Shown in pieces: positions 2,388 through 31,839 of a stretch of 33,928 nt of DNA. The DNA comes from Nanobdellota archaeon (GTDB lineage Archaea > Nanobdellota > Nanobdellia > Woesearchaeales > JAHJEM01): NCBI GenBank assembly GCA_043805315.1, contig JAZDID010000009.1:1-33928 (forward strand), written 5' to 3'. The notes beneath the pieces were generated by a model. It made no database searches and was not told the DNA's origin. It saw only the letters and a list, made by a program, of their open reading frames with translations. Each line of letters opens with the position of its first letter. Within the stretch, counting starts at the first letter, position 1. The position numbers were made by a program, and so were the translations under genes.

Positions 2388-2556
2388 CATGGAAATGGGA
2401 TAAAAAGGGAATTCATGTCATTTTTATCCCATTACTAATACTTTTTACCAGATTGCCATGAAACCACAGGTTTCTTGGCCGTGAGAAACCTCCGGTTTCC
2501 CACGTTTGGTAAAAATCTGTTACTAATACTTTTTATCAAATTTTTTGTAAAAATTT
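2388..2556 (-). repeat. Mosaic hairpin element, partial copy (shares modules with 31615-31698)
   Basis: Reverse complement of 2520-2556 matches 31615-31651 at 34/37 nt. Reverse complement of 2388-2432 aligns to 31651-31698. An 87-nt insert between them carries two GAAACC-N3-GGTTTC hairpins. Confidence 0.85.
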
Positions 2557-2681
2557 GCGGGGGACGTGATTTGAACACGCGCACCCACTAAGGGACTAGC
2601 CGTTTAAAGCGTCTCTTTAAACCCAAACCAGGTTCACGCTGCCTCAAGCTAGCGCATTTGACCAGGCTCTGCCACCCCCGC
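2556..2681 (-). tRNA. tRNA-Leu(GAG) with 40-nt BHB intron at position 37/38 (intron 2602-2641)
   Basis: GCGGGGG/CCCCCGC acceptor arm, anticodon stem CTAGC/GCTAG, loop TT-GAG-G, long variable arm, TTCAAAT T-loop. BHB: TTGA/TTAA central helix and AGCGT/ACGCT outer helix. Confidence 0.95.
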
Positions 2682-3951: not shown

Positions 3952-4719
3952 TTATGATTTTTTCTCTTTCTTGGGCTTCTGCAGGGTTTCCATCTCAGTC
4001 TTGCCTTCAGTGATGATCTCTTTCACTTCCTGGCTTGGAGTCTCTGCCTCGAGCTTCTTCACTTCCCGCTCCTCTTCTGTACCCAATACAATCTCGATCT
4101 CCTTTGCCTCGATTTCTTCCTCTGTGAGGAGCTTCTTTTCCTCTTCGCTGAGCTCTGCTTTTCCTTTCAGCTTCTTCTTCTTGTCTTCGTGCCTTTCTTT
4201 CTCCTCATCCCTGATCCGCTCAGGATGCTCGATGTCATACAATGTTGATTTTGGCGAGAATGCGATGTATGCCTCTTCTCCGACGCTCACGAGATAGCTC
4301 GGGACTGTTATCTTCTGGTTTTGGACAGAGATGTGATGGTGCACGATGAATTGGCGCGCCTGGTCCATAGAGCGCGCAAGGCTCTTTTTGAAGACAAGGC
4401 TCTGCAGCCGTCTCTCCAGGATGTTCTTGATCTGCAGGCCTAACACGTCATCCAAGGGAGCTCCTGGCTGGAGCAAGCCGAGGCGGACAAGCCGGGAAAG
4501 GATTTGTGCCTTCTCCTTTTCTGCCTGCATTCCCTGGCGCGCGGTCAATAACTTTGCCTGGTCCTTGAAGTTCTTGAGCACAGACTCCATCTTCCAAATC
4601 TCCTTTTTTCTCCGCAGCCCATACTCTTTCAAGAGTGTATTCTCCAGCTCGATCCGTGATTTCTGCCAGGGATGCGCGGGCGTATAGTACTTTTTCCTGT
4701 TTTTCTTGATATCTCCCAT
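3952..4719 (-). CDS. rps4: 30S ribosomal protein S4 (uS4) with charged C-terminal extension
   Basis: [33 protein letters not shown]. Confidence 0.96.
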
Positions 4720-4728
4720 CTTCTCTCC

Positions 4729-5316
4729 TTATTTCTTCCTGTCGTCTCCCTGCGGCGCTGCAACCTTCTTCCTTATCACGCCCAGGCCCTTGCCTTTGTT
4801 CTTCCTGAAATTAGACTTGGTCCGCTGGCCGCGGACAGGAAGGCCCCACTGGTGCCGCAAGCCTTTGTATGATTTAACTTTCTTCATAAGCTTGATGTCG
4901 TTTTCTCTCGTAAAGGTGAGATCTGAAGTGATGAGATGCCTGTCTGCTCCGGTCTCAGGATCCTTGCGCCTGTTGAAGAGCCACACAGGAATATGAAACC
5001 TGACAGGATTCCTGATCACCTCATCCAAGGCATTGACTTCTGAATCCAACAGCTCTCCGGTGCGCTTCTGCTTGTCCACGCCTGCAATATGGCAGACTGT
5101 ATGCGCGAACATGACATTGATGCCCTTGATCTTCCGTAACGAGAACATGATCTGCTTCCTGCCGTCCAGGTCTGTGTTGGCAATACGGACGATATGCTTG
5201 TAGTTCGCAGAAGCGTCTGTAGGACGCATCATGACCGGCTTTTGCATGCTTACCTGAGGCTTTTGTTCCTGGCTACGCGGCTTTTTCTGGTCTTGCCCTT
5301 TCCTGTCATCAACCAT
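4729..5316 (-). CDS. rps13: 30S ribosomal protein S13 (uS13) with N-terminal extension
   Basis: IVRIANTDLDG, WLFNRRKD, YKGLRHQWGLPVRGQRTKSN. Confidence 0.97.
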   Translation of the reverse strand: MVDDRKGQDQKKPRSQEQKPQVSMQKPVMMRPTDASANYKHIVRIANTDLDGRKQIMFSLRKIKGINVMFAHTVCHIAGVDKQKRTGELLDSEVNALDEVIRNPVRFHIPVWLFNRRKDPETGADRHLITSDLTFTRENDIKLMKKVKSYKGLRHQWGLPVRGQRTKSNFRKNKGKGLGVIRKKVAAPQGDDRKK

Positions 5317-6566: not shown

Positions 6567-7091
6567 ATGACAGAAGTCAAGATAACTGAAGAGAACCAGG
6601 AGTTTGGGAAGAGAGCTATCGCACTGCAGAAGAAGATACTCGACCAGGGCATTGCGTATTCGCGGGTAAATAGGGAAGGATTGGTTGCGTTGGGCATTCC
6701 CTGGAAATTCATTGACGGAGGAAGGACAAGTCCGAAGAACAGCCTGTGGGTTTTTATGAATCCGTTTGAGATTGCGATAGGCTCTCCTGTTTGCGCAAGT
6801 GGAGCAGAACAGGAAGTTCACTTCATAGGAACATTCATGACCGAGAATTTGGGAAACTGGACTGAGCTTGAAACGCGGGTCAAACGAGATTTTCCTGTCT
6901 TTGGAAAAAAAATCTCAGAAAAGACGTATCTCAAAGGGGAAATCTACTTACCATACGGCGCTGAAGGTAGAAAAGCTTGGAACGAACCCCGGATGGCATA
7001 CATCAAAGATGACACAACCGTCTACCCGGTCTACCAGAGAAACCTGGACGAGATAGTACAGCTGTTCGAAGAATATCGTATAAGTGAATAG
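6567..7091 (+). CDS. Hypothetical protein, divergent from the Lrp regulator
   Basis: 174-aa ORF, GGAGG RBS before ATG 6567; no motif recognised. Confidence 0.7.
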   Translation: MTEVKITEENQEFGKRAIALQKKILDQGIAYSRVNREGLVALGIPWKFIDGGRTSPKNSLWVFMNPFEIAIGSPVCASGAEQEVHFIGTFMTENLGNWTELETRVKRDFPVFGKKISEKTYLKGEIYLPYGAEGRKAWNEPRMAYIKDDTTVYPVYQRNLDEIVQLFEEYRISE

Positions 7092-7092
7092 T

Positions 7093-7311
7093 CTAATACC
7101 GGTGCATCCCCTTCAAGTCAGCGACGATCAGCATGACGCTCACGATGAGCGTGAACGCAGCGAAGAGGATGGTGATGGTCTCTGCAGGCAGGGGATTCTG
7201 GAACGCGATGACCTCGTACTTGATGAGAAAGAAGAGCGCGCTGAGAATCACGCCGACAATGCCGAGGAAAATGCCTGAATGCGAGTTGTGGTAGCTGGAA
7301 TAGGAACGCAT
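7093..7311 (-). CDS. Small membrane protein (2 TM)
   Basis: 72 aa, two hydrophobic segments, TATA-like TTTATTAA upstream. Confidence 0.65.
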   Translation of the reverse strand: MRSYSSYHNSHSGIFLGIVGVILSALFFLIKYEVIAFQNPLPAETITILFAAFTLIVSVMLIVADLKGMHRY

Positions 7312-7379
7312 ATTGCTGTTAAAGAGCTGGAATTAATAAAGGTTTTGAAAAGGATGAAAGATAATCCTGATCTCAATCC

Positions 7380-7700
7380 TGCGCCTCTGGTGGCGGTGCG
7401 ACAGACAAAAACTGCATTCTGGAAGCAATCCAAATGATGCAGTTTTTGTCTTACGACCCACCCCGTAGGGGCCATCCCCCGGGTCGTCGCACGCCACCAT
7501 GGCGCAGACTGGGAGGGGGTTGATTTGCAAACCGCAGGTTTGTAAATTATCACCAATCGCAATTGGTAAGTACCCCCTACGGGGTGCAATTCAAACCACA
7601 GGTTTGAATGCACATTCGAATCTTCGATTCGAATTGTGCCCAGTAGCTCATTCGGAGCAGAGCGGAGAATGAGCGTCTGCCGCCTTGGTGGTGGCGTGCG
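7380..7700. repeat. Mosaic hairpin element copy A (143-bp core 7380-7522, hairpin array, inverted distal arm 7674-7700)
   Basis: Core is 135/143 identical to 31467-31609; distal arm is 24/27 identical to 31812-31838; six hairpins lie in between. Confidence 0.9.
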
Positions 7701-7735
7701 CTGAATTAATAGGAAATAGAATAAAAAAATAGACG

Positions 7736-7853
7736 GGCGGCTGGGGGGAATCGGACCCCCTCCTGAGGCTCTCTGCAGCTTGTCTGCAGAGCCAGAAAAG
7801 CCCTGCTTTTCGCTGCCACAGGCCTCCACGCTAACCGTTACGCCACAGCCGCC
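7736..7853 (-). tRNA. tRNA-His(GTG) with encoded G-1 and 45-nt BHB intron (7771-7815)
   Basis: G-GCGGCTG/CAGCCGC-C acceptor, GAGGC/GCCTC anticodon stem, CT-GTG-G loop. BHB: CTGT/GCAG plus AGC/GCT. T-arm GGGGG-TCCGATT-CCCCC. Confidence 0.93.
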
Positions 7854-7964
7854 ATGGATAGGTGATATGAAACAAGGGGTTTTTAAAAACTTTTGCACGA
7901 AACGCACAGAAAAAGCTGAAAGAAATATGCATATTTTAATACCTGAAACTATTTTCTGCTTTCT

Positions 7965-8726
7965 ATGGGTACTCCAGACCTCGGCGAGCACTTCCTGATC
8001 GACAAGAAAGTTATTGCATTCATCATCGACAATGCAGCATTACAGCCGTCTGACGTCGTGCTTGAGATCGGCCCGGGAAGGGGAGCATTGACCTTTGAAC
8101 TCGCAAAGCACTGCCAAGTTATTGCGGTCGAGATCTCTGACGAGCACTACGACCGCTTGAAGGAAGAGATCAAGAAAAGAGGCACACGGAATGTCACACT
8201 CGTCAACGCGAACATCCTCGACATCATCGACACGCTGCAGTTCACGAAGATCGTCGCAAATATCCCGTACAGCATCTCTGAACCCCTCTTTTACCAGCTC
8301 GCGAAAAAAGATTTCCAGTCAGGGATCATCACGTGCGGAGAGAACTTTTATCAAGTCCTGAAAGGGAAGACAAAGACAGGAATCCTCTTTGCAGCCAGTT
8401 ACGATGTGGAAAAGATAAAAGAGCTCAAGAAAACAGCGTTCTACCCTCCACCGAAAACCAATTCCTGCATCATCTGCGTGAGGAAAAAAAGCAAACCAAC
8501 ACCAAAAGAGCTGTTGCTCCAGCACTTGCTCAGGCTGGACCAGAAGAAAATACAGAACGCACTGGAAAAGATCTTTGAAAACGCGTTGACAAAAAAAGAG
8601 CTCGCACAAAAAATCCGCGAATATGCTGGCGGAGAGAAGAAGAAAGCAGGAATGTTCAGCAAAAAACTCCAGGCGCTCTCGAACAATGAGATGAACTTCC
8701 TGCTGGATTTCCTCGAGCAGAAATGA
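7965..8726 (+). CDS. ksgA: 16S rRNA adenine dimethyltransferase KsgA/Dim1
   Basis: LGEHFL, VLEIGPGRGALT, IVANIPYSIS, FYPPPK. Confidence 0.92.
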   Translation: MGTPDLGEHFLIDKKVIAFIIDNAALQPSDVVLEIGPGRGALTFELAKHCQVIAVEISDEHYDRLKEEIKKRGTRNVTLVNANILDIIDTLQFTKIVANIPYSISEPLFYQLAKKDFQSGIITCGENFYQVLKGKTKTGILFAASYDVEKIKELKKTAFYPPPKTNSCIICVRKKSKPTPKELLLQHLLRLDQKKIQNALEKIFENALTKKELAQKIREYAGGEKKKAGMFSKKLQALSNNEMNFLLDFLEQK

Positions 8727-12869: not shown

Positions 12870-13036
12870 ACAGCGTTTAACACCTCGTGAATCTGATATC
12901 ATTACGCCGTTTATAATATCAGAAACGAAAGCAGCACTTTTCACATCGACGACAAAGAGATATCACCTACCAGAATTCATATCATAAAACGGTTAATGAT
13001 ATCGAATTCGAAGAATATATATACTCTAGTATACAT
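12870..13036. repeat. Dyad-symmetric repeat unit 1
   Basis: Starts ACAGCGTTTAACACC; arms GATATCATTA/TAATGATATC are symmetric about TCGaCGA (centre 12949). Confidence 0.92.
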
Positions 13037-13173
13037 GTGGTATGGAAATTTTTCGGAACTATCACATTCATCATATTTTTTCTCGATAATAGACTGTAAA
13101 CATATATATTGAAGGATATGAATATGAGTTTATTCCGGAAATTTCGAAAAAAATCCGATCATTAAGATTTATC

Positions 13174-13340
13174 ACAGCGTTTAACACCTCGTGAATCTGA
13201 TATCATTACGCCGTTTATAATATCAGAAACGAAAGCGACACTTTTCACATCGACGACAAAGAGATATCACCTACCAGAATTCATATCATAAAACGGCTAA
13301 TGGGCATGAATTCAAGTTATATATGTTGTCAAGTATACAT
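13174..13340. repeat. Dyad-symmetric repeat unit 2
   Basis: 120 of the first 122 nt identical to unit 1; gapless similarity continues to AGTATACAT. Confidence 0.92.
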
Positions 13341-13436
13341 ATTGATCATTTTCAACTTTGCAATATGTGATTTTGTCCCAATTGTGCGACAGAAAAATCA
13401 TGAAATAAGAAAAAAGTGAGGAATTCGCGCCATTGA

Positions 13437-13597
13437 ACAGCGTTTAACACCCCTCGAATCTGATATCATTACGGCGTTTATCATGTAAATTATGAAATCA
13501 TGAAAAATATCCTCGTCGATTATGATTTGTATGCCTTGCGAATTTATATTATAAACGGGTTAATGACTTTAAATTCGCTTAAAGTATATTGTGAAAT
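13437..13597. repeat. Dyad-symmetric repeat unit 3 (diverged)
   Basis: Aligns without gaps to units 1 and 2; arms and central TCGtCGA (centre 13516) conserved, intervening bases diverged. Confidence 0.85.
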
Positions 13598-13679
13598 GTG
13601 TGTTTTATAGTATCTAAATATGATAATGAAAAATGAAGATAATAAAGAAAATAAAAAAAATATGAGAAATAATGATTGT

Positions 13680-31466: not shown

Positions 31467-31839
31467 TGCGCCTCTGGTGGCGGTGCGACAGACAAAAACT
31501 GCATTCAGGAAGTAATCCGAATGATGCAGTTTTTGTCTTACGACCCACCCCGGAGGGGCCAACCCCCAGGTCGTCGCACGCCACCACGGCGCAGACTGGG
31601 TGGGGGTTGCCCCCAAATCTTTACAAAAGATTTGATAGAAAGTATTAGTAATGAGACATAAAAAGGACATGATTTCCCTTTTTAGTCTCATTTCCATGCG
31701 TGGGACCGAGTGAGCGCAGCTCACGTAGGTCGCACACCTTTTTTCTCAGTTTTTCGTGAAAAACTGTCGGGGTGCCGAATAGGGCACACGCAGCTTTAGC
31801 TGCAGGGTGCCCGTCTGTCGCCGTAGTGGTGGCGTGCGA
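31467..31839. repeat. Mosaic hairpin element copy B (core 31467-31609, hairpin array, inverted distal arm 31812-31839)
   Basis: Shares core and distal arm with 7380-7700; shares internal modules with 2388-2556. Confidence 0.9.

Follow-up and report, generated by a model that had tools for sequence, protein, structure and literature searches.

A dispersed three-way-junction repeat in genomes of Woesearchaeota/Nanoarchaeota, probably a mobile DNA element occurring as units and convergent dimers

The window analysed in this work is the complete contig JAZDID010000009.1 (33,928 nt) of a Nanobdellota archaeon (assembly GCA_043805315.1), which is contig C9 of a genome of 1.52 Mb in 147 contigs that is 89% complete. 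Two of its intergenic loci, copy A (7380–7701) and copy B (31467–31838), are convergent dimers, i.e., a unit followed by an inverted unit, of a dispersed non-coding DNA repeat. The repeat itself can, with reasonable though incomplete confidence, be read as a mobile element, selfish and non-autonomous, of the order that record titles call Woesearchaeota/Nanoarchaeota, and as an archaeal analogue of the bacterial repetitive extragenic palindromes (REP), REP doublets forming hairpins (REPIN) and bacterial interspersed mosaic elements (BIME). Its basic unit is a three-way junction of approximately 95–120 nt, in which the closing stem, bearing a single conserved bulged G, encloses three parts: a hairpin that varies, the junction TAC and a near-invariant core hairpin.

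The first-pass annotation had described the two loci as a repeated hairpin element with three arms, and this description was confirmed, with one correction to the cargo given below. Copies A and B share a 143-nt direct repeat (7380–7522 and 31467–31609) with 94% identity according to the repeat finder and 94.4% according to blastn; their third arms (7674–7700 and 31812–31838) are 89% identical by the repeat finder, and the middle arm is complementary to the third arm over 23 nt at 83%. Copy A starts with arm 1 (7380–7402, plus strand), the 5' closing strand of its first, or alpha, unit, which was recognized by direct reading and is conserved in 15 aligned copies. It is followed by hairpin A (hp1; 7403–7451, plus strand), which has a perfect 15-bp stem (7403–7417/7437–7451 on direct reading) and a 19-nt loop and whose stem pairs covary across copies, by a TAC junction (7452–7454), and by the core hairpin (hp2; 7455–7485, plus strand), a candidate mini-triplex consisting of a 5-bp outer stem, A, CCCC, GTA, GGGG, CCAT and CCCCC. 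The middle arm, arm 2 (7486–7509), identified by reading, folding and the covariance model R1 described below, is the 3' closing strand common to the alpha unit on the plus strand and to its inverted partner, the beta unit, on the minus strand. Arm 3 (7674–7700, plus strand; reading, repeat finder and folding) closes the beta unit as its 5' strand when read on the minus strand. Both units were matched by R1: the alpha unit at 7385–7503 on the plus strand (70.2 bits, E 7e-15) and the beta unit, stretched by nested insertions, at 7493–7692 on the minus strand (37.4 bits, E 4e-6). The run of back-to-back small hairpins in copy A was present on direct reading as well. The predicted fold of 7380–7701 has an energy of -166.1 kcal/mol for the plus strand against -107.7 ± 5.2 for 100 dinucleotide shuffles (z -11.3), none of which was as good, and the minus strand also folds far better than expected (z -9.4).

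Seventeen copies read side by side revealed a canonical short form of approximately 250 nt, consisting of arm 1, hp1, TAC, hp2 (core), arm 2, hp3 (core-like), TAG, hp4 and arm 3. The first half thus recurs in inverted orientation as the second, hp3 being a reverse-complemented hairpin of the hp2 type and hp4 the counterpart of hp1. Both copy A and copy B follow this canonical short form and have additional material within the second half. The interchangeable hairpin cargo proposed in the first-pass annotation therefore survives in part: nested swappable modules do exist, but they are not free-standing, the segment in question being a second, inverted unit with insertions. In copy A, a nested double-hairpin mini-module (7523–7572; reading and blastn) is located in the beta-unit core, with GGGGGTTG on one side and CCCCC on the other. 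Relatives of it were found by blastn on five other contigs of the same assembly (C18, C57, C84, C102 and C145), and it occupies the same core position at the three loci that were read closely, i.e., copy A, C18 and C102 (inverted). Two more hairpins recognized by reading (7587–7638) lie inside the same core hairpin and had no second copy in the assembly by blastn; the TAG junction (7644–7646) and hp4 (7647–7673; reading and folding), which is hairpin A of the beta unit, come next. Copy B is organized in the same way. Its alpha unit (31472–31590, plus strand; R1, 62.3 bits) has arm 1 at 31467–31489 and arm 2 at 31573–31596, and the left half of the beta-unit core hairpin (31597–31614; reading) is separated by a 154-nt cargo in the hp3 loop (31615–31768; reading, repeat finder and blastn) from a segment (31769–31838; reading and repeat finder) that comprises the right half of the core, TAG, hp4 (31783–31812) and arm 3 (31812–31838). 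The first ~90 nt of this cargo belong to a separate repeat family, the Y module, present on approximately 18 contigs, including the window at 2388–2561.

The convergent geometry of the dimers is obligatory: all of them read plus and then minus, the 13 dimers of the own genome as well as the 11 adjacent pairs of other genomes (24/24), and the 3' closing strands of the partners overlap, which produces the middle arm. The ability of the middle arm to pair either to the left or to the right, predicted in the first-pass annotation, was evident in the folding of copy A, where arm 2 is paired with arm 3 in the minimum free energy structure and with arm 1 in the centroid. The alternative pairing is possible because on one strand the middle arm can close either the canonical unit or the complement of its partner. 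The apparent switch of the third arm might accordingly be a by-product of two inverted units sharing the middle arm, and a dimer would present one canonical unit on whichever strand turns single-stranded.

The units are numerous. Searches by blastn with copy A or copy B matched dozens of contigs of the own assembly. The covariance model R1 was built from 35 aligned units with a structure written by hand (95 positions, 32 pairs); RNAalifold on a plain MAFFT alignment recovered the core hairpin only, because the remaining stems were misaligned. At E ≤ 0.01, R1 detected not two copies but 51 units in the own genome, which are combined into 38 elements and occupy 0.36% of the assembly; 21 of the 51 are within 300 nt of a contig end. 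The copies within this genome are 78–94% identical, which indicates recent amplification, and the 94% identity of copies A and B at unrelated loci was counted for recent spread, as was the absence of the element beside the tRNA-His genes of two same-genus genomes. Related genomes carry the hp2 core at many sites, often as a single domain in which a long closing stem is combined with a hairpin that varies, with TAC and with the core hairpin. Among 151 genomes sampled evenly from the same order, 42 had units (R1, E ≤ 0.001; 41 of 150 without the unpublished genome G137), from 1 to at least 27 copies each. The remaining 109 gave no match although 87 of them are at least 90% complete, and among all genomes of this completeness in the order sample 28 of 115 had a match. 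In a phylum-level sample, for which the share of genomes from other orders is not given, 20 of 151 genomes were positive (E ≤ 1e-5), all labelled as the same order. A scan with the exact core motif CAYCCCGNAGGGRNCAWCCCCYG, using one genome per species, matched at least 114 stretches in public genomes; among the 80 titles listed, 63 were Woesearchaeota/Nanoarchaeota/Nanoarchaeia, 12 were "uncultured Methanosarcinales archaeon" (third-party assemblies), 4 were bacteria and 1 was Pacearchaeota. The motif had no match in 2.9 million viral contigs, and the left flank of copy A had none in a metagenome scan. Overall, the copy number of the units is high and variable and their distribution across the order is patchy.

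The unit core is also the target of an insertion sequence (IS) that remained unassembled in this genome. Six contigs are terminated by a sequence with a DUF2080 gene (Pfam E 1.7e-10) and three more by another sequence having the corresponding imperfect inverted terminus of 17 bp (the nine being the starts of C141 and C11 and the ends of C29, C45, C14, C13, C79, C41 and C90), and at all nine junctions the IS end abuts GGGG-NNN-CCCC of a unit core, in either orientation. Three contig pairs (C141/C79, C29/C41 and C11/C90) have complementary half-stems, and from each pair a single insertion with a duplication of 11 bp can be rebuilt. A same-genus genome has a DUF2080 gene preceding a DDE_Tnp_1 transposase gene; the literature found on DUF2080 deals with other subjects only. 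Furthermore, a classical miniature inverted-repeat transposable element (MITE) of approximately 125 nt in the own genome carries the same conserved core hairpin centrally. It has the terminal repeat GTATTTGTTTAGC and seven copies (C36, C39, C79 at ~5700, C103, C105, C106 and C141 at ~2770), with target duplications of 8–9 bp in five of the seven, i.e., those with both flanks read.

These observations bear on the possibility that the units are a host-domesticated structural DNA site, which would bind or serve a conserved chromosomal protein acting in topology, replication, recombination or termination and would owe their persistence to the host and not to selfish spread, comparable to BIMEs. 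A single letter occupies individual core columns in 77–82 of the 82 rows of alignment A4 (82 matches found by R1 in 60 loci from 12 genomes, together with close relatives), and this near-invariance across the order, the lack of a transposase linked to the units and a structure kept on both strands are all in favor of such a site. Yet it is hard to reconcile with the 109 genomes that have no unit, the wide range of copy number, the recent amplification and the units broken by nested insertions and by the insertion sequence, and we consider it unlikely.

The secondary structure of the unit is maintained by compensatory change on both strands. In alignment A3 (111 R1 matches in public-genome loci, 109 of them distinct), 81.5% of the cells are in standard pairs against 59.3% after shuffling, the covariation score is 0.419 against 0.128, with none of 500 shuffles as high, and both sides change in 30 of the 32 pairs (slid controls, 35–48%). 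Alignment A4 behaved similarly (86.1% paired against 65.1%; covariation score 0.479 against 0.136; slid controls, 28–45%), and in it covariation is as strong in the internal hairpins as at the termini. The paired columns contained 172 G-T cells (112 + 60) and 239 A-C cells (152 + 87). An RNA, or a fold used on one strand only, is expected to tolerate G-U but not A-C; with no enrichment of G-T over A-C, the Watson–Crick symmetry therefore fits a DNA palindrome folding on either strand.

The genomic context was similarly indifferent to the strand. All 38 elements of the own genome are outside the long open reading frames (ORFs) accepted as genes, the frames spanning them being judged spurious because they result from hairpins without stop codons. 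Sixty loci fetched from 12 genomes included 19 between divergent genes, 9 between convergent genes and 13 sense and 16 antisense in tandem regions, or, after removal of 9 dimer loci, 16, 7, 12 and 13, respectively. Hence, the units occur in every kind of intergenic region; they neither prefer a strand nor avoid promoter regions. None of the neighbouring ORFs recurred in more than 2 of the 60 loci, so at these sites the unit is not a leader preceding one gene family and does not form the end of an element that carries genes. The lack of a wobble excess, of a strand bias and of a recurring neighbour gene together argue for a selfish or mobile repeat at the DNA level rather than an RNA gene.

The same data make it improbable that the units are a structured non-coding RNA family, in which a transcribed unit would act as a folded RNA whose arm 2 pairs alternately with arm 1 and with arm 3, i.e., the switchable RNA considered in the first-pass annotation. 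The strong covariation, the conserved three-way junction, the very high fold stability and the AT-rich 5' flanks are what such a family might display, and TATA-like words near the units are more frequent on the sense side (105 versus 59), but they form no sharp positional peak, and oligo-T after the unit is unbiased (26 sense versus 34 antisense, n = 152). In addition to the pairing and the tandem-region counts given above, the RNA interpretation is opposed by the dimers, which put units on both strands in every case, by the patchy distribution and by the absence of any gene family recurring beside the units. The comparison with Rfam gave no family but tRNA at the gathering threshold in the window, nothing relevant at E ≤ 10 on copies A and B and, for 20 unit loci taken from several genomes, nothing relevant at E ≤ 1.

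The first-pass annotation had compared the element with BIME/REPIN mobilized by HUH enzymes of the type called REP-associated tyrosine transposases (RAYT). The comparison holds as far as a high-copy intergenic mosaic hairpin family of inverted partners is concerned; the mobilization part is not supported. The own genome has a single IS200-type Y1_Tnp gene (C19, 91.9 bits), flanked by different hairpins that are barely repeated. No unit was detected by R1 within 1.5 kb of any of seven Y1 genes (the own one and the six best of the order) or beside nine DUF2080 loci. Y1_Tnp was found in 57 of the 151 order genomes, 20 of them unit-bearing (2 × 2 table 20/22/37/72; odds ratio 1.77, p 0.14, with kinship ignored), and at least 10 units were present without a Y1 match in G010, G014, G035, G057, G082, G101, G153 and the unpublished G137, of which G101 and G153 are 100% complete. 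An HUH/RAYT enzyme as the current driver was rejected on these grounds. The palindrome-associated transposable elements and omega-RNAs of the IS200/IS605 type were rejected for lack of a TnpB zinc-ribbon match in the own genome and of a gene recurring beside the units. A diversity-generating retroelement as the source of the 8 differences between copies A and B was rejected on direct reading, the changes not being A-specific.

Several points weigh against a selfish mobile repeat. A mobilizing enzyme was not found, Y1_Tnp being unassociated and the TnpB zinc ribbon absent from the own genome. No target-site duplication was visible by eye at the ends of the 17 copies, and no transposition event was seen: the tRNA-His loci of the same-genus genomes G001 and G003 are without the element but have other neighbours, and the proteins flanking copy B either are 47–50% identical to their counterparts in same-genus genomes or have no match there. 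The near-invariance of the core across the whole order could reflect a host function. The upstream flanks are AT-richer than the downstream ones (62–69% versus 50–56%), which would fit a promoter. On the technical side, gene orientation depends on a crude ORF caller, and both A3 and A4 were fitted to R1 and are biased towards its structure, although the margin is still large.

An ordinary MITE, i.e., a DDE insertion sequence with an internal deletion, for which the closing stems would be the terminal inverted repeats, is the least probable origin, since no target duplication was seen at the three-arm elements, no gene-bearing element with their ends was found in the own assembly (89% complete) or beside the 60 units and the internal hairpins covary no less than the termini, even though the closing stems resemble terminal inverted repeats, the classical MITE with GTATTTGTTTAGC has the same core and a Woesearchaea genome is reported in PMC11602168 to have a high MITE density, among the archaea richest in automatically called MITEs. 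A search for solo arms flanking a gene gave only scattered 13-mer matches, in about the number estimated by hand, and clustering of multi-copy ORFs for a transposase yielded mostly spurious frames of repeats.

The core of the putative mobile repeat is a nearly invariant segment of 23 nt consisting, within the 5-bp stem, of A, Y1 (CCCC), GNA, R (GGGG), NCAW and Y2 (CCCCC). Y2 varies together with the Y1–R helix in the combinations TCCC/GGGA/CCCCT, CTCC/GGAG/CCCTC and GCCC/GGGC/CCCCA, the CTCC type being represented by 7 units with four different outer stems. When R and Y2 are taken as parallel partners, one position in A4 has G-C in 73 rows, A-T in 8 and nothing else, and the next position has G-C in 55, A-T in 11, G-T in 6 and other combinations in 9; 19 cells are changed on both sides in this register against 3.5 ± 1.6 after shuffling (0/500), and slid registers gave 0–6. 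In A3, whose collecting motif permitted all four G/A:C/T combinations at the last position, R:Y2 was there G:C in 80, G:T in 7, A:C in 2 and A:T in 14 (Fisher p 1.7e-10, kinship ignored). Both variable positions are explained by one parallel register and by no single antiparallel register. The pyrimidine-motif triplex rule allows C.G-C and T.A-T. The R/Y2 pattern appears to correspond to this rule, and the complementary strand would fit an antiparallel purine-motif triplex, for which no protonation is needed; judged from such covariation, the core may form a tiny triple helix of four triples. Exceptions to the rule are one TTCC/GGAA/CCCTC unit, the G-T cells and A or T opposite an inverted C-G pair, and hitch-hiking of subfamilies is an alternative explanation of the parallel covariation.

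The same rule applies to H-DNA and to RNA triple helices, such as pseudoknot and ENE triples, with which the units would share a third, C-rich segment running parallel to the purine strand. The candidate in the units differs in having four triples only, in C runs that would need protonation and in being predicted from covariation. As a mechanism, we propose that the element would act while folded as single-stranded or cruciform DNA, with the invariant core, possibly as a four-triple mini-triplex, serving as the handle for a trans-acting protein. In its full form, the proposal is tentative and less likely than not: the core would be a natural intramolecular triplex, made of a 4-bp hairpin whose purine strand is read by the following C-rich segment in parallel Hoogsteen fashion, with the purine motif on the other strand, and it would be the handle of a single-stranded DNA machinery responsible for spreading repeats of a new class across an order of DPANN archaea, with an insertion sequence evolved to home into this core.

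Among the known systems, REP/REPIN elements with RAYT transposases are bacterial (PMC3116915 and others); the phyla given for REPs in the sections of PMC3733652 drawn on here are bacterial only, and GTAG and CGTC are used there as two tags for classifying REPs. The archaeal units are likewise short, dispersed, intergenic, palindromic and present in high copy number, form inverted doublets and keep their structure by compensatory change. Their hairpin A reads on the minus strand GTAGG...CCGTC, with GTAG at the 5' foot and CGTC at the 3' foot; however, it is one arm of a larger junction, the unit being a three-way junction of ~95 nt, in contrast to the 20–40 nt hairpin that bears the tag in REP/REPIN. 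Moreover, the bacterial elements have a cognate RAYT gene that is flanked by the repeats and inherited together with them, whereas the archaeal units were absent from all seven Y1 loci and did not co-occur with Y1_Tnp. The enterobacterial BIMEs are mosaics of alternately inverted REPs with linker motifs and bind IHF and gyrase. They share with the archaeal element the alternating inverted arms, the interchangeable modules between them and the mosaic copies; the difference is that the "linkers" of the latter are structured hairpins with a conserved core. Integron attC sites are imperfect palindromes of ~60–140 nt, active as folded single-stranded DNA; one extrahelical base is conserved in them, whereas the tip varies and may be branched. 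The size class, the imperfect palindrome, the conserved extrahelical base and the variable tip are common to the units, which, in contrast to attC, are scattered among housekeeping genes, alone or as dimers, without cassette arrays and in which no R-box consensus was seen. The insertion sequences IS1397, ISKpn1 and IS621 target REPs. The IS found here likewise has a fixed insertion position in a repeat, differing in its ~17-bp imperfect terminal repeats, its 11-bp duplication and a DUF2080 gene at one end, with the transposase unassembled. Another IS that targets REPs is ISPpu9 (PMC8450116). A literature search found no description of the present repeat, in agreement with the first-pass annotation, which knew of no archaeal equivalent, although the MITE table of PMC11602168 may already list copies. 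The family is REP-like but without the RAYT association that defines REPs, and it differs from REP/REPIN/BIME in unit architecture and host domain.

The immediate neighbour of copy A, outside the element, is a tRNA gene with a 48-nt intron (7736–7852, minus strand; Rfam, 46.8 bits). The 3' end of this tRNA is 35 nt from arm 3. Its anticodon is GTG by eye, as expected for the tRNA-His named in the first-pass annotation, although ARAGORN reported no tRNA at this position. The intron differs in length and sequence from those of two same-genus genomes (loci L026 and L027), with exons 82–86% identical. A long minus-strand frame at 7248–7991 was rejected as a coding fragment and judged spurious because it crosses the tRNA and the hairpins. 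Copy A lies between genes and a tRNA and was not regarded as a piece of a protein gene. A second intron-bearing tRNA gene, tRNA-Leu by eye (2556–2681, minus strand), had 41.4 bits in a local Rfam scan and was missed both by the scan of the whole window and by ARAGORN; two Y-module copies of ~90 nt (2388–2561) are located directly 3' of it. The Y module also follows tRNA-like 3' ends on C28 and C40, replaces hp1 in several units and, as mentioned, opens the cargo of copy B. Elsewhere in the window, a 167-nt AT-rich repeat occurs three times (100, 90 and 65% identity) at 12870–13603, within a gene-free stretch of ~1.1 kb that has a cytidylyltransferase-like gene on one side and the gene of a thermosome (Cpn60_TCP1) on the other. 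Another repeat family with 6–7 copies was recognized as spurious multi-copy frames (...FPLDDFIERITTIQRMVENEYF...) at C130 (~4500–4860), C6 (~6900–7200), the end of C14 and other sites, on C14 just beside a unit. A 584-residue ORF at C132 (10389–12140) with two paralogues looks, by eye, like a reverse transcriptase of the group II intron/retron type.

For practical purposes, the units break assemblies, as 21 of the 51 at contig ends indicate, and mark safe sites for insertion sequences, which makes them useful for the annotation of metagenome-assembled genomes, while the R1 model is usable for a census of the family and for phylogenetic profiling of a partner protein. From the covariation in the parallel register follows the prediction, open to direct test, that a mobile element contains a natural mini-triplex. 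If the interpretation is true, an order-wide structured counterpart in the small-genome DPANN archaea would, without the RAYT enzyme that accounts for it in bacteria, extend the REP/REPIN phenomenon to a second domain.

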